A stretch of 64,000 nucleotides of DNA from Patescibacteria group bacterium (GTDB taxonomy: Bacteria > Patescibacteriota > JABMPQ01): assembly GCA_041749335.1 (NCBI GenBank), contig JBGTBM010000009.1:179-64178 (forward strand), read 5' to 3'. This document shows, one piece after another, positions 13,171 to 44,864 of the stretch. Position 1 is the stretch's first letter. Each line of letters opens with the position of its first letter. The notes below the pieces were generated by a model that did no database searches, was not told the DNA's origin, and worked only from the letters and a program-made list of their open reading frames with translations. The translations under genes and the position numbers were made by a program.

Positions 13171-14001
13171 TTATTCCTTGGGACCGCGGCCGTACACCTT
13201 GCCGCTATGCATGTATTTTAGAAAATATTTTACCGCGCTATTAATATGAATTCTTGTTTGTTTATTAAACATAGACAAAAATATGCTTGATTCTTTGGCG
13301 GAAGCCCGAGCATAATAATGCACCATTTGTACATGCGGATAATAATAGACCTTCCAGCCTTTCTGCCAGAAACGCCGACACCAATCAACATCTTCCATAT
13401 ACATAAAAAATCTTTCATCCATTAAGCCAACATGATCAATTGCTTTTCTTCTGACCATCATACAGGATCCCAATATCCACGCCACTTCCCGGCTTTCCCG
13501 ATGATCCCAGTCTTTCATTAAAAAATCGTCAATTAATTTTTGTTTTCCGGTTAATTTTCCGAAGGGCGTCCGACGATATAAAACCACTCGCGGAGAGGTA
13601 TACCATTTAAAGCATGAATATTGGATGCTGCCATTGGGGTTAATCAATTGCGCTCCGGAAGCGGCGATGCTCTCATTCTTATCCATATATTCCAACATCT
13701 GATTTAATGAATCTTTTAGAACAGTAATATCAGGATTCAACAATAGAATATAGTCGCTTTGAGATTTTCTAATGCCTTGATTCACCGCCTTGGGAAAACC
13801 AAGATTCTCATCGTTGGCGATTACAATCACTTGTGGAAATTCTTCTTCAATCATATCTATCGTTTCATCTTCGGAATTATTATCAACCACAATTATATCA
13901 TAATCATGACTGGGCGGATTTTTTTGAATAGACTTAATACACTGCCGCAATAAGCTGGGAGTTTTATAATTAACTATAATTACTGATAATTTTTTTAGCA
14001 T
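13171..14001 (-). CDS. Glycosyltransferase family 2
   Basis: LSVIIVNYKT...DIIVVDNNSEDET...NLGF are GT-A motifs. Confidence 0.8.
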   Translation of the reverse strand: MLKKLSVIIVNYKTPSLLRQCIKSIQKNPPSHDYDIIVVDNNSEDETIDMIEEEFPQVIVIANDENLGFPKAVNQGIRKSQSDYILLLNPDITVLKDSLNQMLEYMDKNESIAASGAQLINPNGSIQYSCFKWYTSPRVVLYRRTPFGKLTGKQKLIDDFLMKDWDHRESREVAWILGSCMMVRRKAIDHVGLMDERFFMYMEDVDWCRRFWQKGWKVYYYPHVQMVHYYARASAKESSIFLSMFNKQTRIHINSAVKYFLKYMHSGKVYGRGPKE

Positions 14002-14022
14002 AAAAATTAATATATAAATAAA

Positions 14023-15048
14023 TTAAAACCACCTTCTAATATCAGACGGCTTTAATTTACTTTTAGACAAAATAGCATTTCTTTTTTGCAAAGTCAATGA
14101 CAGCGACAAGATAAAATCAACCAAGCCTTTGATGGTTTTTCTCTCAAATAAAAGTAAATATATAAATTTTTTTAATTCATATAAAAATATTGCCGGGAAA
14201 AATATAATCAAATTCAACAAAAATTGATTTTTAAAAATTAATAAAAAGTGATTGCGGTATGAATAATAATTTACCAGTTCGGATTTCAATTTTCTATTTT
14301 TAATAACGCCAGTATCCACATCCGAACTGCCGGTCTCCCAGCGATGATGATAGGCAAGAGCGCCGGGTATATAATATATTTTCCAGCCTGCATGCCTAAG
14401 CCTCCAGGATAAATCAACATCCTCTTTATAAATAAAAAAATCGTCGTCCAAATAATTCTTATTATAAGATATCGCTTTCACATCATCCAATGCTTTCCGG
14501 CGATATATGGCAGCGGCCGCAGATATTCCAAAAACTTCCCTTTTTTCATCCGGTAAGATTAAGTCATCCTTTTTATTGGCATCGATTTCCACTACCCGAT
14601 GCGATCGAAATATTTTCAATCCCTTAGTGTCAATAATTTTGGTTTTGACAATATTTTTATCTTGCAGTCTGTATTTTAAAATTTTACCGGACACCGCGCC
14701 AATTTCACTGTCCGTGTCTAATATTTCAACAATCTTTAAAATATAATCCCGATCCAAAATAACATCTGGGTTGAGCATCATGATATAATCCCCGGCTGCT
14801 TTTTCAATTCCGATATTATTACCCCGAGCATATCCTAAATTATCCGAATTATTTATAAAAATATAATTATTTTCCCGCGCTAATTTTTCCAAAATCACTT
14901 CGCTGCCGTCTTGCGAGCCATTATTGATAATTATTATTTCTAAATTTGGGTATGTTTGATTTTTTAAAGTCCGCAAACAATCCGCAATGTATTTTTGGGC
15001 GTTATAGCATAAAACAATGACGCTAACTTTGAAATTTCTCTTTAACAT
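14023..15048 (-). CDS. Glycosyltransferase family 2
   Basis: VSVIVLCYNAQKYIADCL...EIIIINNGSQDGS. Confidence 0.8.
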   Translation of the reverse strand: MLKRNFKVSVIVLCYNAQKYIADCLRTLKNQTYPNLEIIIINNGSQDGSEVILEKLARENNYIFINNSDNLGYARGNNIGIEKAAGDYIMMLNPDVILDRDYILKIVEILDTDSEIGAVSGKILKYRLQDKNIVKTKIIDTKGLKIFRSHRVVEIDANKKDDLILPDEKREVFGISAAAAIYRRKALDDVKAISYNKNYLDDDFFIYKEDVDLSWRLRHAGWKIYYIPGALAYHHRWETGSSDVDTGVIKNRKLKSELVNYYSYRNHFLLIFKNQFLLNLIIFFPAIFLYELKKFIYLLLFERKTIKGLVDFILSLSLTLQKRNAILSKSKLKPSDIRRWF

Positions 15049-16600
15049 ATTCAGCTCTTAAAATATAAATAAACAGCATAATAACAATAATATAGCCAAT
15101 TCCCATCGGATGATTCAAATATGGAGTAGTAACGTTGGTAATTATAATGCCAAAAAGCCCCGATAGCATTCCGATTATTAATATTTTATCCTCTTGATGC
15201 AAATTGTTTTTTATTCCTTCCCTAAAAATTTTAAATAAAAACAGTAAATATGCTAGCAAGCCCAATAAGCCGATTTCGGTGATCGTATCAAGGTAGGACC
15301 ATTCAAAAGCAAATACTCTTAACGTTCCGTACTTTTCCGGCACTACACTCTCATACTCTATCGTCGCGCCAAATCCCGATCCCAAAATGGGATGTAATTT
15401 AATTTTCTGAAGCGCGGGACCGATTAAATTAAAACGATTTTGGCCGGCTCCCTCGCTCTGCGGGTGGACAATGCTGTCCAACCGATAAGCCACTAAATCG
15501 TAAAATGTCGGAAACAATGTTCCGCTTAAAATAATAATAATTAAGATCAGGCCGATAATATATAAAATAATTCTCAATGTTTTTTTCCAGGGAATATTAA
15601 AAAATATAAACGCAGTCAATCCGGCCAAGCCCAGCCACAAACTGCGCGAAAAGCCTAAAAATAATGCCGCCGCATTGATTGAAACAATCAAAATCGCTAA
15701 ATAATACTCTTTCTTTTTGAGTCCGCCTTTAAAAAGATAAATTAATAATATTCCCAGTCCGACCAATGAATATACTTGAGCGGCGCTAAAAAACCTGAAA
15801 AAGGGTCCGGCTAAATAAGCTATTTGTCCGATGCTGGTATCTGTAACCCAGCGATAGATGGGAGCTTTTTGATTCTCAAAATCTCGTATCGGCCCGTATT
15901 CCAAAAGTTCGTTTTTGGCAGTTGTTGAATGAGAAATGGTGGAGCCAATTTCCTCTTCATCATCAATTGCCAACTCTGAAGATATGGCCTCTGCCATATC
16001 AGGGCGCGACTCTTGATGGAAGATGGTAAATTCCGCAAAACAATACAGCGTAAACAAACTGACAGCCAGGGACCCGATAATAATTATCTGTAATATATTT
16101 TTAAGATTTTTCTTGCTGATAGCGGCAAAAAATACGAAAGCTAATCCCAAATAGATATATCCATTAAAATCAAAAAATGTATTAGCCAGATTATTTCCAT
16201 AGATAATGCCCAAAAGCAAACCGATTAAGATAAATATTAATAATAAAACATACCAGAAAAAGTATTTGGTTTTAACAAATTTAAACTTATGCGCGCGCTT
16301 TTTAAAAAACCAAATCAAAAATACGACCGCAAATAAAGCTATTCTCAAAGAAAGCGCAAAGCCAAAAACATTAAAAGTAAACAAATACCCTTTAACTCCT
16401 ATGATTAATTCCGTAAGCAAAATATAAACTCCATAATCCAATCTCTTATAGCTAAAATATCCGGCCAGCGCCACAACCGTTAAAAAAATTAAGTGGTTTA
16501 AAATGGGAAATACATATCCCAGGAAGGATAATAAATATATCCCTAAAAAAATTAGAGTATATTTGCAAATATTTTTTATATTTAAAATGTCTTTGATCAT
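15023..16600 (-). CDS. O-antigen ligase/polymerase-like (Wzy/WaaL family) polytopic membrane protein
   Basis: At least 10 predicted TM helices plus a large hydrophilic loop, embedded among GT genes. Confidence 0.45.
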   Translation of the reverse strand: MIKDILNIKNICKYTLIFLGIYLLSFLGYVFPILNHLIFLTVVALAGYFSYKRLDYGVYILLTELIIGVKGYLFTFNVFGFALSLRIALFAVVFLIWFFKKRAHKFKFVKTKYFFWYVLLLIFILIGLLLGIIYGNNLANTFFDFNGYIYLGLAFVFFAAISKKNLKNILQIIIIGSLAVSLFTLYCFAEFTIFHQESRPDMAEAISSELAIDDEEEIGSTISHSTTAKNELLEYGPIRDFENQKAPIYRWVTDTSIGQIAYLAGPFFRFFSAAQVYSLVGLGILLIYLFKGGLKKKEYYLAILIVSINAAALFLGFSRSLWLGLAGLTAFIFFNIPWKKTLRIILYIIGLILIIIILSGTLFPTFYDLVAYRLDSIVHPQSEGAGQNRFNLIGPALQKIKLHPILGSGFGATIEYESVVPEKYGTLRVFAFEWSYLDTITEIGLLGLLAYLLFLFKIFREGIKNNLHQEDKILIIGMLSGLFGIIITNVTTPYLNHPMGIGYIIVIMLFIYILRAEYVKEKFQS

Positions 16601-17475
16601 AGGCTTTTATTTTTTTTCACAGGCCGAAAAAACATTAAAATTTGAGTAAGTAGGGCTAAAAATAGGCTCAATGGATATAAAATAAGAATCACCAGATATT
16701 CCCAAAGAGGTTGATGCTTTTTAAAATATCGGAGCATGCTATTGTTCATCATCAGCTGTTTTTTTAAAGTCATAACTTGATTAAAGCTGGCCGCTTTTTC
16801 ATGCACCACTTCAGCCTCCTCCATAAAAAAAGTTTTATATCCAGCATTTTTGGCCCGCTTGCAATAATCCACTTCTTCAAACCAAATAAAATATTTATCA
16901 TCCAATAGGCCGATTGCCTCAATCACCTTTTTTCTTATCATAAAGCAAGCCCCCATTACTTGATCAACGCTTCTTGTCCGATTGTGTTTCCAATCCAGCA
17001 TATAATATTCCCGAACTGCTTTGAGGTTGGGAAAAATATTATGCAATTTGAGCAAAATAATGACTTGATCATTCAGCGTGGGAAACCTCCGGCAGGATGG
17101 CTGCAAAGAACCATCCGGGTTAAGCAGCCGGCAGCCTAAAATTCCACAATTTAAATTTTTCTTCATGTAATCCACCATCTTATTCAAGGCTTCATCTAAA
17201 ACTTTGGTGTCGGCATTCAATAATAACACGTATTTCCCCTTGGCTCTTTTAATCGCTTTATTATTAGCCGCTGCGAATCCCAAATTCCTGCAATTAACAA
17301 TTAATTTTACTTCGGGATAATTTACTTCTACCATCTTAACGCTACCATCCTCCGAGGCATTATCCACCACAAATATTTCATAATCCAAGTCTTTGGTTCT
17401 TTGATGAATATAATTCAGGCACCATTTAAGCTGCTTTTCAGTATTCCAATTTACGATAATTATGGAAAGCGTCAT
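16597..17475 (-). CDS. Glycosyltransferase family 2
   Basis: LSIIIVNWNTEKQL...EIFVVDNASEDGS. Confidence 0.8.
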   Translation of the reverse strand: MTLSIIIVNWNTEKQLKWCLNYIHQRTKDLDYEIFVVDNASEDGSVKMVEVNYPEVKLIVNCRNLGFAAANNKAIKRAKGKYVLLLNADTKVLDEALNKMVDYMKKNLNCGILGCRLLNPDGSLQPSCRRFPTLNDQVIILLKLHNIFPNLKAVREYYMLDWKHNRTRSVDQVMGACFMIRKKVIEAIGLLDDKYFIWFEEVDYCKRAKNAGYKTFFMEEAEVVHEKAASFNQVMTLKKQLMMNNSMLRYFKKHQPLWEYLVILILYPLSLFLALLTQILMFFRPVKKNKSL

Positions 17476-17479
17476 AACA

Positions 17480-18658
17480 TTAATTTAATTGATTGATAAT
17501 TCTAAGCATGGCATTAGCTCTTACACTCCAGGAATTTTCTTGAGCAATTTTTTTTCTCATTCCGACTTTATCGAGTGTTTCGACCGCTATCGCATCGTTT
17601 AATTTTTTATTAAATTCCTCGTAATCATCAGCGACACTCACCAAATCAGTAAATTTTTCAAGTCCGGCAACCCCGGTAGATATTATCGGCTTGCCGGCCG
17701 CCAGATATTCATACAGCTTCAGGGGATTCATTGACCTGGTAAATTTATTTATCTTGTGGGGAATAATAGCCGCGCTGAATTCTTTAAGATAAGCGGGAAT
17801 ATCTTGATATTTTTTTTGCCCCAATAAAAACAAATTGGAGTATTTTTTCAGCTTTTCAATCCTGGAATTTGGCCAGATCATACCGATAATGACAAAAGAT
17901 TTATCGGGATTTTTTTTCAATAAAGATTCCAATAAATCTACGTCAAAGCGATCCTGGACAATGCCGACATAGCCGATTATCGGACGACCGATATTTTTAA
18001 TATCCTCGAGTGCTATCCCCTCTTTCCGGAACGCAAAATGCCGCGCATCGACTCCATTAGGAATCCAATGAACATTCTGATTATTTTTAAATAATTTTTT
18101 AAGCGCCGAAGAAACCGTGAAAATAATGTCGGCCTTTTTATCGATAATTTCATAATTATTAATTATTTGCTGCTTGATCTTTTGATAGCCGCTGTGCTCG
18201 CTCCAATCATCCACTGCGTCAAATATTTTTAATTCGGCATCAACCTCGTCAAAATATTTAGTGAAGGTGGGAAGATATGACCACAAAATAATATTTTCAA
18301 AATTCAGACCTTCAGCTACCTTATTTATCTTAGCATATATTCTTTTTTCGCCGGATGCGCACATTGAGCAGACAGCGCTATAAACATATAATTTTTCATC
18401 TGCCTGATACAACCTACTTAAAAACCCCCGGTTAATCGCACGCCGCGCGCTTCTATCACAATTTAGAGTAATAAATTTTTTCAACGCCCGTTTATAATTA
18501 TGCGGCAGTAAATCCACTGCCAATACTTTGCCGATCGCTTGGCTTTTTAGCAATTCGCGCAAAATAAAATAATTGCGATTAACAATCCCACGATCCTGCC
18601 AATCGCCATAATCACTCATATTAAAAATGATTAAGTCGCGCCTTTTGTGATTATCCAT
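17480..18658 (-). CDS. Glycosyltransferase, GT4/GT-B type
   Basis: C-terminal GT-B block (PNGVD..., LKLYEYLAAGKPIISTGVAG). Confidence 0.65.
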   Translation of the reverse strand: MDNHKRRDLIIFNMSDYGDWQDRGIVNRNYFILRELLKSQAIGKVLAVDLLPHNYKRALKKFITLNCDRSARRAINRGFLSRLYQADEKLYVYSAVCSMCASGEKRIYAKINKVAEGLNFENIILWSYLPTFTKYFDEVDAELKIFDAVDDWSEHSGYQKIKQQIINNYEIIDKKADIIFTVSSALKKLFKNNQNVHWIPNGVDARHFAFRKEGIALEDIKNIGRPIIGYVGIVQDRFDVDLLESLLKKNPDKSFVIIGMIWPNSRIEKLKKYSNLFLLGQKKYQDIPAYLKEFSAAIIPHKINKFTRSMNPLKLYEYLAAGKPIISTGVAGLEKFTDLVSVADDYEEFNKKLNDAIAVETLDKVGMRKKIAQENSWSVRANAMLRIINQLN

Positions 18659-18783
18659 TTAAGCTAATTTTCTTTATTTTATAAGTTTTTTTAGATAATA
18701 TCAATGAAGATAACATAGTACTTGATTTTTCCACGCATAATTGTTAATTTAAGCATAATATCGCTGACAATAATAATATAATA

Positions 18784-19725
18784 ATGAAAAAATTAATAGT
18801 TACAATTCCGGCCTACAATGAAGAAAAATACATTACTGATGTCATTAAGGAAATTCCGCGTGAAATTCCCGGAATTGACAAAGTTGAAGTATTGGTACTT
18901 GATGACGGCTCTATAGATAATACGGTTAATGTCGCCAAGGCCGCGGGCGCTGATTACGTGATTTCACACAATACCAATAAAGGGCTGGCCAAAACCTTCA
19001 AAGATGCTGTAGAAGAAGCCTTAAATCGCAATGCTGATATTATTGTTAATACTGATGCCGATAATCACTACGATCAATCTAAGATCCCGCTTTTGATCGA
19101 ACCGATTCTTAACAATCGAGCCGATATCGTGATCGGATCGCGCGAGATAAAAAATTTAGACCACATGCCCACGACCAATAAATATGGGAATCTGATGGGC
19201 AGCTGGTTTGTCTGTAAACTGGCTAATTTGCCTCACGTTGACGTGTCTTCCGGTTTTAGGGCTTATTCTAAGGAAGCGGCTCTCAAAATGAATGTGCTTT
19301 CCCCCCATACTTATACCCACGAAACATTGATTCAAGCGAATGACCACAAATTAACGATTGTCGAAGTGCCGATTTTGGCTCGTGAAGTAAAGAGAAAATC
19401 CAAGCTGATAAAAAGCATCCCCAAGCATATTGTTAAATCATTGTCAGTAATATTCAGAACATTTACGCTTTATAAACCGATGAGAGTATTTTTGGTAATT
19501 GGAGGTATTCTTTTCGTTCTGGGAATGGTGCCCGTTATTCGCTTTGCGTATTTTTATTTTAACGGCTCCGGAGCCGGCCACATCCAGTCATTGATCATCG
19601 GCACCATGATTGTTTTGATTGGCTTTATTACCACGGTCATGGCGATGTTGGCGTCGGCTATCGGTTGGAATAGAAAAATTATCGAAGAAATATTATTTAG
19701 AGTAAAAAAAATTGAAAAAAGATAA
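18784..19725 (+). CDS. Polyprenyl-phosphate glycosyltransferase (GT2, DPM1/GtrB-like) with C-terminal TM helices
   Basis: IPAYNEE...VLDDGSIDNT...DADNHYD, then two C-terminal TM helices. Confidence 0.75.
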   Translation: MKKLIVTIPAYNEEKYITDVIKEIPREIPGIDKVEVLVLDDGSIDNTVNVAKAAGADYVISHNTNKGLAKTFKDAVEEALNRNADIIVNTDADNHYDQSKIPLLIEPILNNRADIVIGSREIKNLDHMPTTNKYGNLMGSWFVCKLANLPHVDVSSGFRAYSKEAALKMNVLSPHTYTHETLIQANDHKLTIVEVPILAREVKRKSKLIKSIPKHIVKSLSVIFRTFTLYKPMRVFLVIGGILFVLGMVPVIRFAYFYFNGSGAGHIQSLIIGTMIVLIGFITTVMAMLASAIGWNRKIIEEILFRVKKIEKR

Positions 19726-20789
19726 TGAAAGTATTATTTATAACTCGCAAATATCCTCCGCAGGTTGGTGGAATGGAAAAATATAGTTATGATTTAATTA
19801 AACATTTTCCAGCAGAAAAAAAAGTTATTTCACTTAATAAATCTCAAATTCATTTAATTTGGTTTCTTCCTTATGCGCTTATTAAGGCAATTTATTTATC
19901 TAGAAAAGTTGATTTAATATTTTTATGCGATGGTTTACTAGCACCTATAGGATTTATAATCAAAATTATTACTAAAAAACCTGTTATATCTGCCGTTATG
20001 GGACTAGATGTCACTTACAACAATAAAATATATCAAAATATAAATGTAAGATCTTTAAAACACCTCGACGGCATCATTTCAATTAGCATTGCAACTATAA
20101 ATGAATGTCTAAAAAGAAATATTGCTAAAGAAAAAATAATTTTTATTCCTATCGGAGTTAATTATAAAATTAGTAATAACAATAAATCTAAAAATGAGCT
20201 CTCGAAATTTATTAAAAAAGATATATCAAACAAAAAAATATTTATTACGGTCGGCCGTTTGGTAGAAAGAAAGGGAGTTGAATGGTTTGTTACAAACGTT
20301 ATACCAAAATTAAGCAATGATATAGTTTATTTAATAATTGGAGATGGACCCAACAAAGATAATATTAATAATGCTGTTATTAACAATAAAGCTAAGAATA
20401 AAGTATTTTTACTTGGAAGAATTTCAGATACAGAATTAGATCTTATATATTCAACAGCTGATATATTTATAATGCCCAATATAAAAGTAAATAATGATTT
20501 AGAGGGATTTGGGATTGTAGCTATAGAAGCATCTTCTCATGGTTTACCCGTTATCGCTTCACGCTTAGAAGGAATTCAAGATGCTATTATTAATAATAAA
20601 ACTGGCTTTTTCGCAGAACCAGAAAATGCCTCTTCTTTTATTAATAAAATCAATGAAATTTTAACTATGCAGGAGTATAATAAATCAAATTTAAGGTCTG
20701 AAATTCATCAAAATACAATAAAGTATTATTCCTGGAATAATATAATGAATCAATACAATAAATTTTTTAAATATGTCATCAATAAATAA
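19725..20789 (+). CDS. Glycosyltransferase family 4
   Basis: EGFGIVAIEASSHGLPVIASRLEGIQDAI is the GT4 EX7E region. Confidence 0.8.
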   Translation: MKVLFITRKYPPQVGGMEKYSYDLIKHFPAEKKVISLNKSQIHLIWFLPYALIKAIYLSRKVDLIFLCDGLLAPIGFIIKIITKKPVISAVMGLDVTYNNKIYQNINVRSLKHLDGIISISIATINECLKRNIAKEKIIFIPIGVNYKISNNNKSKNELSKFIKKDISNKKIFITVGRLVERKGVEWFVTNVIPKLSNDIVYLIIGDGPNKDNINNAVINNKAKNKVFLLGRISDTELDLIYSTADIFIMPNIKVNNDLEGFGIVAIEASSHGLPVIASRLEGIQDAIINNKTGFFAEPENASSFINKINEILTMQEYNKSNLRSEIHQNTIKYYSWNNIMNQYNKFFKYVINK

Positions 20790-21675
20790 AATAAAAGTTA
20801 GTATAATTATCCCAACATATAATGAAAAAGAGAAATTAATTAATTGCATAAATTCAATATATAATCAAAGCTACCCAAATAATTTAATTGAAGTTATTGT
20901 AATTGATGATGGTAGCACGGATGGAACAAAAAATTATCTAAAATATAATTTTAAAAAAGTATTATTAATTGAAAAGCAAAATACCGGAGCCTATGATTCA
21001 AGAAATAGGGGTATAAATATTGCCACCGGAGATATTTTAGCGTTTACAGATTCTGATTGTGTCGCAGATAAAAATTGGATAAACAATATTGTCAAAAATA
21101 TTAAAGATAGCAAAAATATAATCGCGGGAGGAAAAATAGTTCACAAAAATAATTTTATTCAAAAAGTCATTGGCATTTCCGATTTTGGCGAATATCAAGA
21201 TGACAAAATTAAAAACATTAATGCAATACCAACCGCGAATCTAGCCGCAAGTAAAATTATTTTTGATAAATATCGTTTTGATCAAAGCTTAAAATCCTCT
21301 GGAGACCGCCTATTTAGCTGGAAACTTTTCAAAGATGGATTCAAACTTATATATTTCCCCGACATAATCATATTTCATGATCCATCCATCAAATTATCCA
21401 GATTTTTTGAAAGAAAATATCGTTATGGCAAATCCTTTATAGAAATAAGAAAAAACCATCCCGATTTACCAGGCTCAAAAATAGTTAAGTATCATATATT
21501 AGGCGCTTATTTAATTTCCATCCTAAGAACCATTCTGGATATATTCAGATTATTTAAAACATTGAAAAATAATAATATTAAGATATATGAAATAGTACCA
21601 GCTATCGTACTTATTGGCCTAGGGAGAATTACTTTCTTATGTGGAAATATTGTACAATTGATTAAAAATGATTAA
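20773..21675 (+). CDS. Glycosyltransferase family 2
   Basis: VSIIIPTYNEKEKL...VIVIDDGSTDGT. Confidence 0.8.
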   Translation: MSSINKIKVSIIIPTYNEKEKLINCINSIYNQSYPNNLIEVIVIDDGSTDGTKNYLKYNFKKVLLIEKQNTGAYDSRNRGINIATGDILAFTDSDCVADKNWINNIVKNIKDSKNIIAGGKIVHKNNFIQKVIGISDFGEYQDDKIKNINAIPTANLAASKIIFDKYRFDQSLKSSGDRLFSWKLFKDGFKLIYFPDIIIFHDPSIKLSRFFERKYRYGKSFIEIRKNHPDLPGSKIVKYHILGAYLISILRTILDIFRLFKTLKNNNIKIYEIVPAIVLIGLGRITFLCGNIVQLIKND

Positions 21676-29947: not shown

Positions 29948-29999
29948 AACCATTGAATTAATTAATGTTATTGATATGATTTCTTTAAATATTTAATTT

Positions 30000-31523: not shown

Positions 31524-31526
31524 AAT

Positions 31527-31910: not shown

Positions 31911-31968
31911 TTTTTTCGATAATTAACTTATATTATTTTATAAAATTGCGAATTTTTAATATAAATCG

Positions 31969-36153: not shown

Positions 36154-37023
36154 TTACCTCTTCCATTTAGATAAATCCTTTTTAAATAATATTTCCAACT
36201 GTTCAATATCCTTAATAAATTTTTTTATAAGGTATTTTCTAGTACAATTTTCCATATTTCTATAAACAATTTTTCTTGTCGATAAGTTAATAATCTTTTC
36301 TTTAAAACCGCTTTCTTTTATTTTTTTGATAACGTTTGATAAATTAAATAATATCATTGCTTGAGATAAATATTTCATTAATGATAATATTAATACGTTA
36401 TTAATCTCCCTTGAAGAATTTACTTTTTCATTTATTTTATTTGGAATAAACTCATCATCAACTTCTAAAAATTTATATAATTTTTTTATTTCTATTAAAG
36501 GATTTTGTTTAATATCTTCTATAAATAAAAATATAATTTGTTTTTTATCAAAATATTTTAACCATCTATTAATGTGAAAACTATATAATCCTTTATCAAT
36601 ATACTCCTCTTCTAATCTTACGACATCTTCAAAATCTCTTTTTTCTTTCTTAAAATAATTTTTATACATCAAATACTGTGAATAAGCCCTATCTATCGGA
36701 TTTCTTAAACACACAATTATTTTTATATCAGGAAATTTTATTTTTATTCTTTTTGGTGCTTCTTTATCAATCAAATATTGAGTTGAGAACTCTCCCTTTA
36801 CGCAATTATTTTTACAATGCTTAAAATGTTTTGAATACCACTTAAAAGTTTTATTGAAATTTCTATTTTTAAAATTAAAAATATATGATGATTTTTTATT
36901 AAAATATTGAACTTCTTTTGGTTCAGATAATTCAATCTCGGGATGTTGATCTAGCATTTTTGATAACCATGTCGTGCCTGCTTTTTCTGCTCCTATGCCA
37001 ATAAAGTTAATTTTTAAATCCAT
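36154..37023 (-). CDS. Sulfotransferase (PAPS-dependent family)
   Basis: 5'-PSB motif IGIGAEKAGTTWL and 3'-PB motif CLRNPIDRAYSQY. Confidence 0.75.
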   Translation of the reverse strand: MDLKINFIGIGAEKAGTTWLSKMLDQHPEIELSEPKEVQYFNKKSSYIFNFKNRNFNKTFKWYSKHFKHCKNNCVKGEFSTQYLIDKEAPKRIKIKFPDIKIIVCLRNPIDRAYSQYLMYKNYFKKEKRDFEDVVRLEEEYIDKGLYSFHINRWLKYFDKKQIIFLFIEDIKQNPLIEIKKLYKFLEVDDEFIPNKINEKVNSSREINNVLILSLMKYLSQAMILFNLSNVIKKIKESGFKEKIINLSTRKIVYRNMENCTRKYLIKKFIKDIEQLEILFKKDLSKWKR

Positions 37024-37051
37024 AATTTTAATTAATAATCCGTCAAAACAT

Positions 37052-37756
37052 CTAACTATATAATTTTTTTCCTACAATAATAAATCTTCTAAGAAATGTT
37101 AATCTCAATTTATATATTTTTGAATTAATAGAATTGCCCTTGTAAAACAATGTTAAAACTTTAATTAATTTACTAATTATTATTCCAATTACCCCCTCAA
37201 GGAATGAATAAAAATATTTATATTCAAATGTATTAAGATTATTATTATAAAATATTTGAATAATTCGCCTAACAGTCGTTATATTATTATGAGTATAATC
37301 GCAATTAAAAAAATCATTTCTCCAATCTAAATAATCTGGACTAAGTATTATTATCATCCCTCTTTTTTTTAATACTCTTTCTGATTCTGAAATAAATGTT
37401 TCTGCCTCATTAGAATTATTTAAGTGCTCATATACATCAAAACATAAAATTATATCATACGATTCATCTATTTCATTCAATGTTGGTATTTTATAATTAC
37501 TTACCTTTCGGACACCAATATTCTTCATTAATTTATTCATATTAATATTTGGCTCAACAACATCGTAATTTTTATATCCATTTTTGAGAAATACTTTTGC
37601 CAAATCTCCCTTCCCTGGTCCAATTTCTAAAATATCACAATTCTTACTTCTTAAATATTTACAAATATATCTAAAATCTCTCTTAGTTTTTCTATTATGT
37701 AATAATTTACCAATTTTAGTAGATTTGCTTTCTGCAAAGTGGTCAAAATATGGCAT
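37052..37756 (-). CDS. Class I SAM-dependent methyltransferase
   Basis: Motif I ILEIGPGKGDL and post-I ILCFDVYEHL. Confidence 0.7.
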   Translation of the reverse strand: MPYFDHFAESKSTKIGKLLHNRKTKRDFRYICKYLRSKNCDILEIGPGKGDLAKVFLKNGYKNYDVVEPNINMNKLMKNIGVRKVSNYKIPTLNEIDESYDIILCFDVYEHLNNSNEAETFISESERVLKKRGMIIILSPDYLDWRNDFFNCDYTHNNITTVRRIIQIFYNNNLNTFEYKYFYSFLEGVIGIIISKLIKVLTLFYKGNSINSKIYKLRLTFLRRFIIVGKKLYS

Positions 37757-38813
37757 TGTATATCTTTTTAAGTTTTATTAAATAATTATTTAATGAATAT
37801 TTTATTGCAGTTTTATAACCTTCTTCAATAATGTTTTTTCTATAAATATTATTTGTAGAAATATTAATAATCTTTTTAGCCAAATCTTGTGAATTATTAA
37901 CTTCAAAAAGCAATCCATTTTTTGTATTTATTATTTCATTGAGCCCATATGTGTTACTTGCAATTACAGGTGTTCCGCAAGATAACGATTCTAATTGAGT
38001 CATCCCCAGTGCTTCCCATAAAGATGGAATCACAAAACAGTCTATTGAGTTATAGAAACTAGGCATATCATATATCATACCAATCAAGAAAACATTATTT
38101 TGTAGATTATAATTATTAATTATATTTTTAATTTTATTTCTGTCTGGACCATCACCAGCTATTAGAAATTTAAATCTTTTATCATCACATGCTATTTTTT
38201 TTGCAGCGTTTAATAAAATCTTCCAACCCTTTCTTTTATTAAGTCTTGCTGCAAAGCCTATTAAAATATCTTTTTTGCTTATATTATATTTTGTTAAACT
38301 AAATTTTTTTAAAGAAAATTTTTTAAATTTATCTGTATCAACAAAATTATATAATACCTCAATTTTATTTTTTTTAACTTTGGCATTTTTAATTAATAAT
38401 TTCTTAATATGATCAGACACTGAAATAAATTTATTAACTCTATCTTGTGCAAAATTAATAAACAAATTATATAATTTTTGATTTTTTACTATTTTCCCGT
38501 GTTCATGGAAAATTAATTTTATATCTTTATTAATAAAAGCTTTATATAAATATCCAATCAGAAATGACTTAAATAAATGGCAGTGTAATATATTAAAATC
38601 CTTTTTTTTAACTATCTTTTTTAAAATTAATAAACAACCAATATTGATTTTTCGGTAAGATTTATTATATATAATATTGCCATAATTATATTTTCTTACA
38701 GAATTTCTAAGAGAAAAACAATAATTAGATTTATCCTTCCTGATTATTCCTAATACAACAGTTTGAGCTCCTCCCAAACCTAGATGATCAATTAAGTGTA
38801 GTATTTTTTTCAT
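37743..38813 (-). CDS. Glycosyltransferase family 4
   Basis: HLIDHLGLGGAQ at the N-terminus and EALGMTQLESLSCGTPVIASNTYGLNEII. Confidence 0.8.
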   Translation of the reverse strand: MKKILHLIDHLGLGGAQTVVLGIIRKDKSNYCFSLRNSVRKYNYGNIIYNKSYRKINIGCLLILKKIVKKKDFNILHCHLFKSFLIGYLYKAFINKDIKLIFHEHGKIVKNQKLYNLFINFAQDRVNKFISVSDHIKKLLIKNAKVKKNKIEVLYNFVDTDKFKKFSLKKFSLTKYNISKKDILIGFAARLNKRKGWKILLNAAKKIACDDKRFKFLIAGDGPDRNKIKNIINNYNLQNNVFLIGMIYDMPSFYNSIDCFVIPSLWEALGMTQLESLSCGTPVIASNTYGLNEIINTKNGLLFEVNNSQDLAKKIINISTNNIYRKNIIEEGYKTAIKYSLNNYLIKLKKIYNAIF

Positions 38814-38994
38814 ATCTAAATTTTACATATCGTATATATATTCCACTTCTTGAAGGTGTTAATTTTTTTACAAATTCAAATTTAACTTTACATCTACTGC
38901 CCATTTAAATTATTAATTTATTATATATATCTTTTAAATCTTTTTCTTAAATCATAGATCTTTTTCCAATTTTAATGGTTATTTTATTAATATC

Positions 38995-39420
38995 CTATTG
39001 GATTATCTGAAATATTTTATCAGCTGCATTAAAATAAGCAACTTCGGCATTATCACAATATTTACTAATTATTATTATATCAATTCTAGTATATAAAAAA
39101 AATATGTGATACTAGTGATGCTTATGAGTATGGCATATTCTAATATTTTCTTTCCCACTCCACTAATAAAAATTCTTTGCGCCTGAAGATTATTCAAATA
39201 TTAATGCCTTCATTTTTTGACAATGATTGTGCGATATATTTGGCAATTGATTCACTTAAACCATTAACAATAAAATACATAAAAAAGAAAGTGATTAAGT
39301 AAAAAGAGTAAATAAAGCCCATATTTATCCGGACTCCATGCGTTAGATAAAATATAATAAATTAGCAAATAATGCTAAATTGTATATTATTATTTGTATT
39401 ATTTTCCAAATACTGTTTTT
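38995..39420 (-). pseudogene. Degenerate remnant of a Wzx flippase gene (internally deleted paralog of 34819-36150)
   Basis: 39001-39140 aligns to 35340-35470 and 39225-39420 aligns to 35935-36130 at roughly 80-85% identity. No ORF survives. Confidence 0.75.
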
Positions 39421-40573
39421 AAGAATTATTGTCGACATTATTAATTAATTTTTTATAATTTATTTCTAGATCCTTACAAATTTTCGAAATATTAAAATTG
39501 TTTATAGTGTGTTTTTGTCCATTTAATCCTATACAATCTCTTAATTCCGTATTTTTTAATAATTCTATTGTTTTTTTTGCGTATTTTATTGGATCATTTT
39601 CAATAATAATATCCTGATTGTTTTTAGCGTCAATTCCATATGCACCTATGCTCGTAGTTATTACCGGCATCCCCGCAGCCATAGCTTCAAGAATTTTAAC
39701 TTTGATTCCACTTCCCCATGTTATTGGTGCCACAAAAACCTTATAAAAAGTAAAATGATCTTTAACATCACTAACTTCTCCACAAAGTATTATATTTTTA
39801 CTTTTCATCATTGATATTTTTTCATAATATTTTCCAATAATATAGAATTTTGCCCGTGGTATTTTTAATAAGATTTCAGGAAATATATTCTTAATGAAAT
39901 AATTTACAGCATCAATATTCGCATAATGTTTAAAATTTCCGATAAATAATAATGAATCTTCTTTAATAATATTTCTTTTTTTATTATACTCATTGACCTT
40001 TAGGCCTATTGGGCAAACTTGGATGTTTAAATTATTATTTTCCTTTTTTATTAATAGTTTATCGTCTTTACTTCTCGTTAATATTAACTCCGCATGCTTT
40101 AATATCTGCATTTCTACTTTTTTAACAATCCAATATTTTATTAAATTTAATATTTTAGATGTACCCTTGCTATATTGATATCGAGTCTGCCTACTGCCAA
40201 ATAATACATCTACCTCACTTATTACTATTTTTTTGTGTTTTATAAAAGGAGAATATAACCCACATAATGTATATTCTATATGGACTATTTGAATATCGTA
40301 AATTTTAATAATATTATTTATTTCTAATAAAAATTCAGTAAAATAATTTTTAATGAATTTTATAGGATTTTTATGAAATTTTAATTTATTAAAAACTTTT
40401 AAATAGGCACAATACTTCATTAGATTATCCATTTCTTCCTTTTCATAGCCCTCTATCCGTGAAATAAAATAGATATCATTTTTTTTTGATAATTCTTTTA
40501 TTAAATTAAGCATATACACCCCCCCTCCATGAAATCTTGAAGGAAAATGAGTTGAAACAATTAATATTCGCAT
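39419..40573 (-). CDS. Glycosyltransferase family 4
   Basis: MRILIVSTHFPSRFHGGGVYM at the N-terminus and a C-terminal GT-B domain. Confidence 0.75.
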   Translation of the reverse strand: MRILIVSTHFPSRFHGGGVYMLNLIKELSKKNDIYFISRIEGYEKEEMDNLMKYCAYLKVFNKLKFHKNPIKFIKNYFTEFLLEINNIIKIYDIQIVHIEYTLCGLYSPFIKHKKIVISEVDVLFGSRQTRYQYSKGTSKILNLIKYWIVKKVEMQILKHAELILTRSKDDKLLIKKENNNLNIQVCPIGLKVNEYNKKRNIIKEDSLLFIGNFKHYANIDAVNYFIKNIFPEILLKIPRAKFYIIGKYYEKISMMKSKNIILCGEVSDVKDHFTFYKVFVAPITWGSGIKVKILEAMAAGMPVITTSIGAYGIDAKNNQDIIIENDPIKYAKKTIELLKNTELRDCIGLNGQKHTINNFNISKICKDLEINYKKLINNVDNNS

Positions 40574-40616
40574 ATATTTCCTATTTCTTTTATAATTTTA
40601 TATTATTTTAATTAAT

Positions 40617-41400
40617 TTACTTTAATTTACATACAAATATTGTCCCCGCACAACATATCCATGGAGATATTGACTTTAATATTCCTTCTAATTTATTTCC
40701 GATTCCATTTAATTCATATTTTTTATTTTTTGCTCGTAGAAATGGGAAGTCCATATAAAAACCCATACTTTTAGGTTTTTTAAAATCATCGGCTGCAATT
40801 TCAACAATTTGAAAACCATTCCTAAGTAAAATCTTTTTAAATTTATTTTTTGTAAAACGATATTCGCCAAAAACCATTTTACATCCATTGATTTTATTTA
40901 ATAAAACAAATATATTTTTTATATGATTTATAAATAATCTTCTGATAAAATTTTGAGTTGGAATTGTTATAATCAGATAACCATTTTTTCTTAAAACCCT
41001 TCTCATTTCATCCAAGGCCCCTTGGGGACCCTCCTTAAAATGTTCCACCACTCCTAATGAAATTATTACATCAAAATAATTATTTGGATATTTTATATCT
41101 AATATATTTCCTTTTTCAATTTTAATATTACTTCCAGATAATTTTATTTTTTTTATATATAGCATCATCACTTAACTCTATCCCTTGAATATCATATCCT
41201 TGACTATTTAAATAGAATACCCACCTTCCTAATCCGCATCCCGCCTCTAATATTTTATGAGTTTTTTTTAAATACTTATTAAATATATCATCTACATTTT
41301 GGTATTTACACAATGCAATTCCTTCATTTATTGATTGACCCAACCAACATTGGCCTAAAGTATCTCTATTATTTTCTTTTTGATAATGTATATAAGTCAT
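40617..41400 (-). pseudogene. SAM-dependent methyltransferase disrupted by a frameshift at an A8 (plus-strand T8) homopolymer
   Basis: ORF 41128-41400 carries motif I ILEAGCGLGRW. ORF 40617-41171 carries FDVIISLGVVEHF and LRKNGYLII. The frame switches within the T8 run at 41147-41154. Confidence 0.65.
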
Positions 41401-42374
41401 TTTCTCACTACCTTTCTTCGTTTAATAATATATTTAGGTATCAAACAAAATGCGTTAAAATTTGCTTTTACTAAAATTATAGTCATTTTCCATATTCCGA
41501 TATTTTCTTTTAATTTTTCAACCGATTCATTTTTATTAAAAAAATAAGAAATTTTTAATTTAATATTTCGTAAAGGAAATAATAAAAGATCGAATAATGC
41601 TAGATTTTTAATAGCTGTCAAAATTGAATTCCGCTCACAATAAAAAGATTTGAAGGGAGATGCTACTCCTCCTGTTTTAGAATGAAGGTGGATTAACTTT
41701 GCATTCGCAGATAGATATGATATATAACCCATACTTCGCATCCTAAAACCAATGTCATAATCTTCTGTATATGCAAAAAAATCTTCATCAAAAAATTCTT
41801 TATCTCTGGCAATTATTTTTTTCACCATCTCCCTTTTAAAAAGCGCTGCAACTCCACCAGCAGCAAAAACCTCAGAATCTGTGTTAAGTTCTGGAATTTG
41901 TTCATCGGTCATTCCATATCCCATTGATACCCCCCCCTTTTTATTAATATGTATGCTTTTACTAAACTCTAATCCTGCGTTTTGAATCGTCTTCCCATCA
42001 CTAAAATATGCCTTACTTGTTACAGAGCCAATTAAATTATTTTTTTGAGCAGTTTTAATTAAATTATTTAACCAATTTTTCTCAACAATAGTATCATTAT
42101 TTAAGCAAATTATATATTTTATGTTTTTATCAGTAAGGGCATTCTTAATTCCTTCATTATTACCTTTGGCATATCCATAATTTTTATTAAGTTTAATTAT
42201 TTTTACTTTATTAAAAAATTTTTTTACAAAATTTACGCTATCATCTACAGAACCATTATCAACCAGATATATTACAAAATTTTTATATGTTTGATTGTAC
42301 AAAGAATTCAAACAATCATTTAAATATTCTTTACCATTCCAATTAACAATTATTATTGCTACGTTATCTCTCAT
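41397..42374 (-). CDS. Glycosyltransferase family 2
   Basis: VAIIIVNWNGKEYL...VIYLVDNGSVDDS. Confidence 0.8.
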   Translation of the reverse strand: MRDNVAIIIVNWNGKEYLNDCLNSLYNQTYKNFVIYLVDNGSVDDSVNFVKKFFNKVKIIKLNKNYGYAKGNNEGIKNALTDKNIKYIICLNNDTIVEKNWLNNLIKTAQKNNLIGSVTSKAYFSDGKTIQNAGLEFSKSIHINKKGGVSMGYGMTDEQIPELNTDSEVFAAGGVAALFKREMVKKIIARDKEFFDEDFFAYTEDYDIGFRMRSMGYISYLSANAKLIHLHSKTGGVASPFKSFYCERNSILTAIKNLALFDLLLFPLRNIKLKISYFFNKNESVEKLKENIGIWKMTIILVKANFNAFCLIPKYIIKRRKVVRK

Positions 42375-42439
42375 TATTTTAATTTCATCTACTATTATTT
42401 CAAATTTATTTATAAATATTAATTATTTATAATTTAAGT

Positions 42440-43738
42440 TTATATTTCATTAATAGTATATAAATATTTTCCGTTTTTTAAACAATTAATATTTTTTACA
42501 AATTCCCAATCTATTTTACAGCTTTGTCCCATCACTTTTTTAATTGATTTTTCGATTCTATTTCTGTTCTCTTCAAATAATGTCTTCCTTTCTAAAACAA
42601 CCTTAATAAGTATTTTATTATAATTCTTTTGAATTACTTGAAATTTTTTAATATAGCCTTGATTATAAATTACCCCTATGAAATGTATAAAATATTCCGC
42701 GGGTATAATTTTACCCTCTTTCGTCGTAAATATACTTATTTCCCTACCCTCAACTTTTTCTAAATAACTCCAATTTTCACCTCTAATACCAATATCACCT
42801 ATTTCATATCTAATAAAAGGCATTGAGTAATTATTTAAATTAGTGATATAAATCTTATTATTTTCTAATACTTCTAAATAATTATTCCAAAAACTCAATT
42901 TCAATCCTTGATTAGTATTATCATCACACGCCATATCCCCAACTTCCCTTGATCCATATCGATTAAAAACTTTTGTTTTAAAAACTTCTTCGATCTTCTG
43001 TTTTATTTCTGGATATAGCGTACCAGCGGAAGTTAAAATTCCTTTAGGACTATACATTTTAAAATTATTTCTTTGAATAAATTTAGCGAATTCAGACATT
43101 GACTGAACATATGCCTCTACCCAAACCGGCTTAAACTTATTCCAATCTTTTACAAATTTTCTCATATTCTTTTCTGACATTTTAAAACTATTTAATTCTT
43201 TTCTATTATATAAAAAGTTTTTTAAACGCGTTGAGAACATTTCCTTGTCCAGTAATAAATCCCTCTCTGATCCCCATAAGCGCAATTCTCTATACCCCAT
43301 ATCTTGCTTAGCAAAAGTCTTAAAATATATTTTGTTAGCAATATTCCAATCACTATAATTTTTATCTTAAAGAAATCTTACCGGCTCACCTGTGCTTCCA
43401 CCAGAAGTATTTTCGTAGAATCCTCTTTTTTTGTAATCTTTAGAATATAAATTACTCCCTTCGCTTCTAATTATTTCTTTTGTAAGAATGGGAATTTTAT
43501 TGAAATTTTCCAAATATACTTTATTATTTTTAACAACTCCGGCCACTGCTAAAATCTTATGATAATATAGAACATTCTCGTAGGCATGCTTTAGTATTTT
43601 TTTAAGCTTTTCCTTTTGATATTTCTCCTTTTCCGATAAAGAAAAATTATTAATTTTTTTTATTTCTTTTATGTTTCCAGAAATTTTACTGCCAGCTAGA
43701 TAAAGGAAGAAATATATTATTGGTTTACGCCAGTTCAT
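42440..43738 (-). pseudogene. CapK/PaaK-like adenylate-forming enzyme (phenylacetate-CoA ligase family) interrupted by an in-frame TAA
   Basis: The upstream ORF ends ...TSGGSTGEPVRFL* (AMP-binding motif). The same reading frame continues after the TAA at 43367-43369 (minus strand) as DKNYSDW... into ORF 42440-43300. Confidence 0.65.
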
Positions 43739-44864
43739 CTTTTTTAATTATATCCCTATATATAAGAAAATACTTATTGGCCATATTATCCCAGCTCATT
43801 TTTTCAGCCTTATTTCTACTTTCCCACTTCATTTTTTTAAGTCTTTGCCTATCTGTATATAGATTTTCCAGACTTTTATATATGTCATTTATATTTTTTT
43901 TATTTATAATAATGCCGTTTCTCTTATCGATTAATTCTCTTGTGCCTCCGGTATCAGTTGAGATTATTGCCAACCCAGATGACATTGCCTCTAATAATGA
44001 ATTACTCATCCCTTCATTAAGAGAAGGAAGCACAAATACATCAGATTTTTTATAATAATCATTTATATTATTATGATCAATTGTACCTAATATATTAATT
44101 TTATCTTTGAGGCCAGATTTAATTACTTTTTCTTCTATTTTTTCCCTTAAATTGCCATCTCCTATTATAATCAAGTCACTTTCTTTATATTTCTTATTGA
44201 ATTTAATAAACGCATCAATTAAGTAATTTATTCCTTTTCTTTTAATAAGACGCGATGTTGAAATTATAGTAAATTTATTATTTTCCCTTTTTTGAGGTTT
44301 AAATTTTTCAAAATCAATCCCATTATAAATTACTTCGAAATTTTGTTCTGCGCAGCTCCTTTCCGCTAATATTTTTAATCCTTCAGAATTAGTTACTACT
44401 CGTTTTGATCTTTCCCAAATATTTTTACTTAATCTCTGAAAAATTATTTTATCCAACCAATAAAATCTTTTGTTATAAAAAGGAACATCGCTTCCGCGTA
44501 AACTGACAATATAAGGTAAGTCAAGTTTCATTGCAATATAGCCACATGGAATTCCAAAAAAAGCATGGACTAAATCAAAATTATTTTTTTTATTTAATTT
44601 TTTACAAAATAAATAAGCCCTAAGGGTATAATTTAATATATCTTTATTGCTCTGATAGTGTAAATTTCCCTTTTTACCGATATTTAAAAAGTATATTTTG
44701 ACATTGTCGCTAATATTTTTCTCTTGATATTTGCCTATTGATGAAGTGACTAAAGTAATATTAATATTTTTTTCTTTGGCCAATTCTTTTAATAAATAAT
44801 AAGTCGCATTGCCCGCGCCTCCTCCGAGTGGTGGATATTCATAGTTCAACATTAAAATATTCAT
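43725..44864 (-). CDS. Glycosyltransferase family 4
   Basis: MNILMLNYEYPPLGGGAGNAT at the N-terminus and a C-terminal GT-B domain. Confidence 0.8.
   Translation of the reverse strand: MNILMLNYEYPPLGGGAGNATYYLLKELAKEKNINITLVTSSIGKYQEKNISDNVKIYFLNIGKKGNLHYQSNKDILNYTLRAYLFCKKLNKKNNFDLVHAFFGIPCGYIAMKLDLPYIVSLRGSDVPFYNKRFYWLDKIIFQRLSKNIWERSKRVVTNSEGLKILAERSCAEQNFEVIYNGIDFEKFKPQKRENNKFTIISTSRLIKRKGINYLIDAFIKFNKKYKESDLIIIGDGNLREKIEEKVIKSGLKDKINILGTIDHNNINDYYKKSDVFVLPSLNEGMSNSLLEAMSSGLAIISTDTGGTRELIDKRNGIIINKKNINDIYKSLENLYTDRQRLKKMKWESRNKAEKMSWDNMANKYFLIYRDIIKKDELA

Follow-up and report, generated by a model that had tools for sequence, protein, structure and literature searches.

A probable envelope-glycan locus of a Patescibacterium, with an AT-rich variable block between a conserved core and a nucleotide-sugar cluster

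Comparison with described glycan loci

In the O-antigen and capsule clusters of Enterobacteria (rfb/cps; e.g., Klebsiella cps, galF...gnd/ugd), conserved flanks surround a hypervariable centre of glycosyltransferase (GT), wzx, wzy, and modifying-enzyme genes, pyruvyl transferases among them, and the GC-poor centre of rfb clusters is taken as a sign of lateral origin. Nucleotide-sugar genes (ugd, rml, and those for GDP-sugars) lie at one end of Klebsiella cps, and one such locus was recorded with a 'coenzyme F420 hydrogenase' gene (PMC4616057). Here we analyzed a 64-kb window (the whole stretch considered, 64,000 nucleotides) of a contig from a Patescibacteria group bacterium (GCA_041749335.1, JBGTBM010000009.1, positions 179 to 64,178), with a focus on window positions 13171-44864, which a preliminary description made from the letters alone had presented as one 31-kb glycan island. 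Our reading, held with a probability of about 0.72, is that the window carries a Patescibacterial envelope-glycan locus composed of an inherited core, a replaced variable block, and a conserved cluster supplying nucleotide sugars and S-adenosylmethionine (SAM). It looks as if a conserved locus had its variable part swapped, and not as if a self-contained foreign island had been inserted.

Like rfb/cps, the locus has conserved flanks around a variable centre that includes a pyruvyl transferase, with nucleotide-sugar genes at one end; the features of Wzx/Wzy clusters that it presents are Wzx of the MOP family, 13 GT2/GT4 enzymes, and nucleotide-sugar genes. Unlike those loci, its host is a monoderm-like bacterium of the candidate phyla radiation (CPR) without lipopolysaccharide (LPS), the window holds no WbaP/WecA initiator, Wza/Wzb/Wzc, or Wzz, the core flippase has been lost, and three GT-C proteins and two polyprenyl-phosphate-sugar synthases are embedded among the other genes. 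Pfam and NCBIfam profile scans of every non-overlapping open reading frame (ORF) of at least 100 aa backed nearly every family that the preliminary description had listed for 13171-44864, and with them its view of a surface-glycan/glycosylation locus that is large for a small, low-GC genome. Its count of 'about 15' GT2/GT4 transferases came down to the 13 that Pfam supports (8 GT2 and 5 GT4/GT-B). Transmembrane (TM) helix counts given below are predictions, and GC content was computed per gene across the window.

Core synteny, the composition step, and the origin of the block

The window has the background of a bacterial chromosome of ~36% GC, and its 11.2-20.8 kb interval is collinear with a related Patescibacterial contig of 41% GC (L097). 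The order there is DUF4012, GT2, GT2, Wzy, GT2, AglJ-like GT2, GT4, the genes of 13171-19725 having amino acid identities of 78, 47, 53, 65, and 69%, and L097 stops one gene into the low-GC block. The features of the core and of the adjoining block are as follows:

11178-13142, minus strand: DUF4012 single-pass membrane protein (Pfam DUF4012, 3.7e-25; 51% identical and syntenic in L097)
13171-14001, minus strand: GT2 (Pfam)
14023-15048, minus strand: GT2 (Pfam)
15023-16600, minus strand: Wzy_C membrane protein, 12 TM helices (Pfam Wzy_C, 47.7 bits vs a 31.7-bit cutoff)
16597-17475, minus strand: GT2 (Pfam)
17480-18658, minus strand: GT4-type transferase (Pfam)
18784-19725, plus strand: AglJ/DPM1-like polyprenyl-phosphate-hexose GT2 (Pfam, NCBIfam; below family cutoffs)
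19725-44864, both strands: low-GC variable block, 25.1 kb at ~25% GC, with 19 intact genes, two broken genes, and one remnant
19725-20789, plus strand: GT4, the first low-GC gene (Pfam), Patescibacterial partner of the upstream GT2
44901-44927, minus strand: intrinsic terminator of the LamG/MopE gene at the right edge of the block (10-bp stem, then a T-run)

The genes of 13171-19725 had host composition (33-40% GC), and those of the block were at 17-28% GC with the sole exception of 33885-34817 (33%). At the left edge, GC content fell from 39.8 to 25.8% at the one-base overlap of two genes (19725); at the right edge, it rose from 27.1 to 44.4% across a 75-bp spacer holding the LamG/MopE terminator. 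GC1/GC2/GC3 in the block were 0.30/0.25/0.20 vs 0.41-0.47/0.30-0.34/0.34-0.38 in the flanks, and FYMINK residues made up 0.49 of block proteins vs 0.34-0.39 in the flanks. Since all three codon positions are GC-poor and the amino acid composition is shifted with them, these results suggest long residence in an AT-rich genome and not recent decay. Protein function does not explain the bias, since enzymes of the same kinds (GT2, GT4, polytopic Wzy) are encoded at host GC next door. The two AT-rich patches noted previously, at 28-34 and 36-44 kb, were thus placed roughly right but belong to one continuous block, and the GC pattern does indicate mosaic acquisition, as had been proposed. The single 31-kb island did not hold up, since its left 6.5 kb (13171-19725) is at host GC and syntenic in L097 at 47-78% amino acid identity; 'core rather than island' describes that part.

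The low GC could instead be native, the outcome of relaxed selection and AT-biased mutation in fast-evolving surface-glycan genes. The glycan regions of two other Patescibacteria are GC-poorer than their surroundings (0.33-0.37 falling to 0.26-0.29 in L165 and 0.44 to 0.33-0.38 in L167), the window's GT4 diverges from its relatives as much as these do from each other, and the pseudogenes of the block show relaxed constraint. However, such a process would have to change GC content by 12-14 points from one base to the next at the left gene overlap (19725), and over 75 bp at the other edge, and to affect 19 intact genes, two broken ones, and one remnant on both strands equally, while the adjacent host-GC module holds the same enzyme classes without the bias. 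Moreover, it would have to shift GC1 and GC2 along with GC3. We therefore regard a native origin as quite improbable.

Synteny with other Patescibacteria places the left edge of the block inside a conserved gene pair. The GT4 at 19725-20789 has 1174 homologs, with named ones from Patescibacteria, and its adjacency to the AglJ-like GT2 is retained in L097, L107, L165, and L167, where the GC gap between the two genes is at most 3.4 points vs 14 here. As a rule, a Wzx gene stands in front of the pair and variable genes come after it, and these differ in more distant Patescibacteria; in L165, for example, they are PMT_2, DUF1616, Wzx, and GLF. Both L165 and L167 again have a Wzx-GT2-GT4 core with variable GT-C/Wzx/GT content behind it. 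The Wzx found upstream of the AglJ-like GT2 in L082, L083, L084, L097, L165, and L167 is absent here, its place being occupied by a divergent 125-bp spacer (18658-18784), and the flippase genes of the window lie exclusively within the low-GC block. Loss of the core Wzx together with flippases confined to the block fits replacement and not addition. In addition, MetK, UGDH, GT2, and GT4 genes lie within 6 kb of one another in the more distant L107 and also in L085 and L092, suggesting that both flanks belong to one ancestral glycan neighbourhood, with order and orientation differing.

An abrupt change of composition on a metagenome-assembled contig (135,588 bp) might also mean that assembly or binning produced a chimera with DNA of another organism, an AT-rich one. 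With host-GC sequence to either side, a chimera would require two joins, the left of them inside a pair of genes conserved as neighbours in at least four other Patescibacteria. Furthermore, the Logan assembly of run SRR28170473 holds the same organism at 100% nucleotide identity, and two of its contigs, L162 (15189-24582) and L164 (39034-46057), cross both junctions at 100% identity. We give a chimera very little credence. A prophage or integrative element was considered as well and dropped: window scans found no integrase or transposase domains, no tRNA target, and no boundary repeats, and neither a tRNA scan nor Rfam at the gathering threshold had any match in the 64 kb.

Under the replacement reading, the core at 11.2-19.7 kb (DUF4012, three GT2, Wzy_C, GT4, and the AglJ-like synthase) would have been vertically inherited, and the block would stem from homologous replacement and the shuffling of cassettes, with much more AT-rich Patescibacteria supplying the DNA, the left breakpoint lying exactly between the conserved GT2 and GT4. 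The block probably came from AT-rich Patescibacterial relatives, since the best matches found for its genes were in AT-rich members of the phylum; a Patescibacterium of 26.5% GC (L168, GCA_034520665.1), for instance, encodes a GT2 67% identical to that at 41397-42374. L082 (29% GC) was examined as a donor and rejected: the start of the first low-GC gene is matched at 92% by the last 25 codons of this contig, but all relatives share 23-24 of 26 there whatever their GC content.

Several side observations concern the edges of the block and the use of this locus elsewhere. The LamG/MopE-type Cys-rich-repeat protein, which is secreted or membrane-anchored (44939-46081, minus strand), is encoded at 44% GC, above the host average, and sits between the block and UGDH; Logan contigs break inside its gene. 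In L165, a 1.05-Mb contig, a set of DUF2130, GmrSD/HNH, and EcoRI-type methylase genes (2815-6337) lies between the Wzy_C region and the GT4/Wzx/GT2/GT4 core. This defence/restriction-modification insertion marks the same locus as an insertion hotspot in another lineage. DUF4012, whose gene here lies just outside 13171-44864 and probably belongs to the glycan locus, is enriched in CPR and Gram-positive bacteria and occurs in a Bifidobacterium capsular/exopolysaccharide (CPS/EPS) cluster (PMC6744442). As far as the statements in these papers go, the cluster of B. longum 105-A resembles the present one in placing a DUF4012 gene at a polysaccharide cluster of a monoderm (PMC6744442, citing PMC5412050).

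The extracytoplasmic cassette and the other genes of the block

Besides the GTs of the usual cytoplasmic families, the block encodes a cassette of membrane proteins and an adjoining lipid-linked-sugar synthase:

28304-33888, plus strand: four-gene extracytoplasmic cassette (PMT_2 GT-C, ectoprotein, 4-TM protein, 639-aa GT-C)
28304-29947, plus strand: PMT_2 GT-C (Pfam PMT_2)
30000-31523, plus strand: membrane-anchored ectoprotein of 507 aa, with one N-terminal TM helix and beta-jelly-roll domains resembling carbohydrate-binding modules (CBMs)
31527-31910, plus strand: small 4-TM protein, 127 aa (topology)
31969-33888, plus strand: predicted GT-C of an unannotated family, 639 aa, 17% GC (AF2 model)
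21668-23320, plus strand: GT-C-like polytopic protein, 550 aa, at least 8 TM helices (weak LA_3751/2 putative GT match in NCBIfam)
33885-34817, minus strand: ArnC/PgfS/GtrB-like polyprenyl-phosphate GT2, 33% GC, with two C-terminal TM helices and a G8 tract

The 639-aa protein had no Pfam or NCBIfam match, and its only PDB sequence match was a chance-level one to an unrelated enzyme (E=2.5); indeed, PDB sequence searches with the three polytopic proteins returned nothing useful. Its 21 detectable homologs, found among 5.8 billion clusters, share with it an invariant D182-E183 (22 sequences) within a 'YIDEY.HI' motif, consistent with the acidic motif that GT-C enzymes conserve in their first external loop. 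The protein has ~13 TM helices and a mixed alpha/beta C-terminal domain (residues 520-639), in keeping with the soluble C-terminal domain of that superfamily. Foldseek comparison of an AF2 model (pLDDT 73.5) matched AglB (4e-6), STT3 (3e-5), ArnT (1.5e-4), and PglB (2e-4), and further ALG9 and Pmt4; TM-scores were 0.36-0.49, and the top PDB matches were all GT-C. On this structural model, 31969-33888 is predicted to encode a GT-C enzyme of an unannotated family. Its GC3 of 0.155 is extreme even within the block. Alignment of the family with hhalign to the PMT_2 protein and to 21668-23320 was not significant, and the latter two showed weak homology to each other (BLASTP 1e-4). Three GT-C-like proteins, the minimum proposed earlier, therefore stand, on a Pfam match (28304-29947), an AF2 model (31969-33888), and weak homology (21668-23320), respectively.

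The 507-aa ectoprotein was ruled out as a further GT-C, having a single TM helix and an all-beta ectodomain; its model (pLDDT 91.6) resembles modules many of which are carbohydrate-binding, and its family counts at least 847 cluster representatives without a Pfam model. Its reading frame opens with Met and eight Asn codons (an AAT repeat at 30000-30030) that are potentially slippage-prone. The 127-aa protein had no Pfam or NCBIfam match at E<=1, GtrA and the SMR/EamA families included. The neighbouring GT2 (33885-34817), which abuts the 639-aa GT-C gene, matched NCBIfam ArnC over 307 of 316 positions (1.4e-49; below the family cutoff) and PgfS (6e-44). Together with the AglJ/DPM-like enzyme at 18784-19725, this full-length synthase accounts for the two polyprenyl-phosphate GT2 enzymes of the preliminary description. 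L168 has the same gene order: PMT_2, a ~505-aa protein, a small TM protein, and the new GT-C.

This arrangement recalls three-component systems (GtrA/GtrB/GtrV, ArnC/ArnT/ArnE-F, and CsbB/GtcA/YfhO), which likewise bring together an ArnC/GtrB-like GT2, a GT-C, and a small 4-TM protein; the shared scheme of lipid-phosphate-sugar synthesis, flipping, and transfer outside the membrane is suggested here by topology and position. The cassette differs from them in that its small protein falls outside GtrA and SMR/EamA, its GT-C comes from an unannotated family, and it includes an additional membrane-anchored CBM-like protein and a second GT-C, of the PMT_2 type. Archaeal Agl clusters offer a further comparison. 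Among named families, AglJ scores best with the conserved GT2 at 18784-19725 (107 vs a 325-bit cutoff, NCBIfam), the structure nearest to the new GT-C is AglB, and the few named homologs of a Fer4-FrhB-pyruvyltransferase fusion in the block are mostly from methanogens and anaerobic methanotrophic (ANME) archaea. The likeness is limited by scores far below cutoffs, by the absence of STT3/AglB sequence homology, and by the bacterial host.

These resemblances raise the possibility that the locus mainly glycosylates proteins, e.g., S-layer proteins, type IV pilins, or other surface proteins, with the Wzy_C protein acting as a PglL-like O-oligosaccharyltransferase (O-OTase) and the PMT_2-type GT-C proteins as protein O-glycosyltransferases supplied with polyprenyl-phosphate-sugars. 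A polysaccharide, free or bound to the wall, would then not be the main product. The Wzy_C domain is common to Wzy polymerases, WaaL ligases, and PglL-like O-OTases, so the family takes in the required activity. The GT2 at 18784-19725 is most like AglJ of archaeal S-layer N-glycosylation and dolichyl-phosphate-hexose synthases, one GT-C matches PMT_2, a protein O-mannosyltransferase family, and the oligosaccharyltransferases AglB, STT3, and PglB rank among the closest structural matches of the new GT-C. CPR bacteria are also without an outer membrane and LPS (PMC6744442). On the other hand, heteropolysaccharide repeat units are the more typical context for 13 cytoplasmic GTs, two Wzx, and decoration with pyruvyl, sulfo, and methyl groups, the window contains no pilin or S-layer protein as a candidate acceptor, and the AglJ, ArnC, and PMT similarities all fall under family cutoffs. 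We consider a mainly protein-directed role possible but rather unlikely, and the two functions are not mutually exclusive. The product is most likely a decorated heteropolysaccharide of the Wzx/Wzy type, or a glycan for surface proteins.

The remaining genes of the block are these:

20773-21675, plus strand: GT2 (Pfam)
23327-24187, minus strand: GT2 (Pfam)
24227-26743, minus strand: fusion of 2x[4Fe-4S] ferredoxin, FrhB/FdhB-like flavoprotein, and polysaccharide pyruvyl transferase, 838 aa (Pfam; NCBIfam CsaB/WcaK/FrhB)
26744-28240, minus strand: Wzx/MOP flippase 1, 13 TM helices (Pfam Polysacc_synt 1.4e-23; HfsF-like in NCBIfam)
34819-36150, minus strand: Wzx flippase 2 (Pfam Polysacc_synt, NCBIfam)
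36154-37023, minus strand: sulfotransferase (Pfam, NCBIfam)
37052-37756, minus strand: SAM methyltransferase, intact (Pfam, NCBIfam)
37743-38813, minus strand: GT4 (Pfam, NCBIfam)
39005-39417, minus strand: remnant of a further Wzx copy, with direct repeats to Wzx 2, in a ~600-bp otherwise ORF-less gap (38.8-39.4 kb)
39419-40573, minus strand: GT4 with a G7 tract (Pfam)
40617-41400, minus strand: SAM methyltransferase, frameshifted at an A8 run near 41150 into 90-aa and 184-aa pieces
41397-42374, minus strand: GT2 with a G8 tract (Pfam)
42440-43738, minus strand: CapK/PaaK-family adenylate-forming ligase, broken by a single in-frame TAA (43367-43369)
43725-44864, minus strand: GT4, the last low-GC gene, 27% GC (Pfam 3.8e-36)

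Both intact Wzx genes scored well above the 28.2-bit Polysacc_synt cutoff (84 and 111 bits), confirming the two flippases of the preliminary description, and Pfam likewise supported its sulfotransferase and pyruvyl-transferase fusion. The fusion architecture is common to 145 homologs, of which the best non-self match is 45% identical. Most are unnamed, and since the few named ones are mostly archaeal, with Omnitrophota and Auribacterota in addition, the ultimate origin of the fusion may lie outside the phylum.

Three genes of the block are broken. The two pieces of the ligase are in the same reading frame and both match PaaK/F390-synthetase (NCBIfam), CapK_C lying on the 286-aa piece; the CapK-like assignment thus stands, for a gene inactivated in this sequence. 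One of the two methyltransferases reported previously is intact (37052-37756) and the other is likewise inactivated, the Pfam Methyltransf_11 match on its 184-aa piece being limited to profile positions 35-95. Both lesions are also present in the Logan assembly (L164). The Wzx remnant holds tiny ORFs only, and the Logan contig breaks there; its repeats match stretches within Wzx 2 (39005-39103 with 35345-35443 at 93%, and 39209-39417 with 35923-36129 at 78-79%). The Wzx copies and the broken genes suggest that the block was pieced together from cassettes, and a nonsense mutation, a frameshift at a homopolymer, and the Wzx remnant would be signs of its ongoing turnover. With two intact Wzx, a Wzx remnant, and broken genes, the claim of 'one decorated polymer' is not supported as it was worded.

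Three GT genes contain in-frame G tracts on their coding strand: G8 at 34090-34097, G7 at 40519-40525 (codon 17), and G8 at 41930-41937. They rank as the three longest G/C homopolymers of the 64 kb (P(>=3) ~0.02 under a Markov-1 model), and the L168 ortholog of 41397-42374 has no such tract, encoding Gly-Gly as GGA GGG. The tracts hint at phase variation. Conceivably, the block is a contingency locus of an ultra-small episymbiont, in which the G7-G8 tracts and the methyltransferase switched off at A8 stochastically vary a surface glycan built around an uncharacterised, CPR-typical extracytoplasmic cassette. We regard this as speculative and unlikely; if true, it would tie surface-glycan variation to host or phage interaction in Patescibacteria.

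Precursor supply, the proposed pathway, and its meaning

Downstream of the block, a host-GC precursor cluster has the same gene order as in a Patescibacteria metagenome-assembled genome (MAG; L001), at 51-76% identity:

46211-53273, minus strand: UGDH, MetK, GMD, Rmd-like reductase, GalE, RmlA, RmlD

UGDH and RmlD were recognized by Pfam, GMD and GalE scored above NCBIfam trusted cutoffs, and RmlA was identified by a PDB sequence match (6e-73). The best solved relative of the Rmd-like reductase is a GDP-6-deoxy-D-lyxo-4-hexulose reductase (PDB 2pk3, 2.7e-63), which supports GDP-D-rhamnose synthesis. Supply of UDP-GlcA, GDP-D-Rha, and UDP-Gal was thus correctly anticipated, and that of a dTDP-sugar in part, since the window lacks RmlB and RmlC. 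MetK (47512-48678, minus strand) stands beside UGDH within the sugar cluster, as it does in L001 and L107, and may supply the glycan methyltransferases. Its nearest relatives are from Patescibacteria MAGs (76 and 72% identity), and we dropped it as a phylogenetic anchor since only distant relatives were available (best 76%) and the gene is itself a member of the sugar cluster.

Elsewhere, the window encodes SecA, SecDF, AspRS, a class-I tRNA synthetase, CTP synthase, NifSU, L9, and FG-GAP/YkuD proteins. Two minus-strand genes fuse FG-GAP to a YkuD L,D-transpeptidase (58012-59427) and to an M14 carboxypeptidase (60256-61989), and a homolog of the YkuD-FG-GAP protein adjoins the glycan locus in L165, L107, and L092. 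Eight of 10 tested window proteins were present in a collection of ~15 billion proteins, each as a singleton at 90% identity. Exact-protein look-ups with AspRS, the last GT4, and the fusion protein gave no match, at least one miss resulting from a differing start-codon call; look-ups with other proteins led to Logan contigs. Promoter scans were uninformative in this AT-rich DNA (164-172 sites vs ~133 expected) and were set aside, leaving the LamG/MopE terminator as the one convincing signal.

From these gene families, we infer a pathway in which cytoplasmic GT2/GT4 enzymes would assemble a repeat unit on polyprenyl-phosphate from UDP-GlcA, UDP-Gal/Glc, GDP-D-Rha, and a dTDP-sugar. The unit would then be pyruvylated, sulfated, and methylated, exported by Wzx, and polymerised or ligated by the Wzy_C protein, the Wzy/WaaL-like protein of the preliminary description. 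In parallel, the two polyprenyl-phosphate-monosaccharide synthases may feed the three GT-C proteins, which would add side-branch sugars on the external side of the membrane. Gene families, the composition step, both junctions, core synteny, and the broken genes were observed directly, whereas the order of the pathway, the identity and acceptor of the polymer, and the donor lineage are inferred.

Several points weigh against this reading of the locus as a whole. No priming phosphoglycosyltransferase (WbaP/Bac_transf or WecA/MraY/Glycos_transf_4) was matched by Pfam or NCBIfam among the window ORFs scanned (non-overlapping, at least 100 aa), and such a gene may lie elsewhere in the genome. The only trace of a chain-length regulator was a sub-threshold Wzz match (E=0.025, 15 bits) in 21668-23320, and the window holds no export or attachment enzyme, leaving the pathway incomplete as seen. 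The Wzy_C match is compatible with a polymerase, a WaaL-like ligase, and a PglL-like O-OTase alike. As to the origin of the block, the donor is argued solely from composition and a few matches of 30-67%, and low-GC relatives are not nearer to the GT4 at 19725-20789 than the remaining ones are. Judged from the tested proteins, the databases contain no relative that reaches 90% identity. Other Patescibacteria, too, have glycan regions a few points lower in GC than the sequence around them, and part of the dip could thus be common to loci of this type. The Logan assembly, being made from the same reads, excludes assembler artefacts and not sequencing ones.

Patescibacteria attach to other microbes, and their surface is the interface with hosts and phages; to our knowledge, their envelope glycans are essentially unstudied, and we found nothing specific in the literature on CPR glycan loci or on FrhB-pyruvyltransferase fusions. 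The present locus indicates that a CPR genome can spend >40 kb on glycan synthesis, from DUF4012 through RmlD (11.2-53.3 kb). Its evolutionary architecture is that of O-antigen and capsule loci, in which a conserved core and precursor genes surround a laterally exchanged, decaying block. Its biology fits known hypervariable, laterally exchanged glycan loci and overturns nothing, and its modest novelty lies in a GT-C family that has no annotation, in a GT-C cassette that is conserved, and in the G7-G8 tracts of three transferase genes. The block holds metagenome-widespread, unannotated families, i.e., those of the 507-aa CBM-like ectoprotein and the 639-aa GT-C, and the locus is useful as an annotated example and for the candidates that it supplies for new GT-C families.

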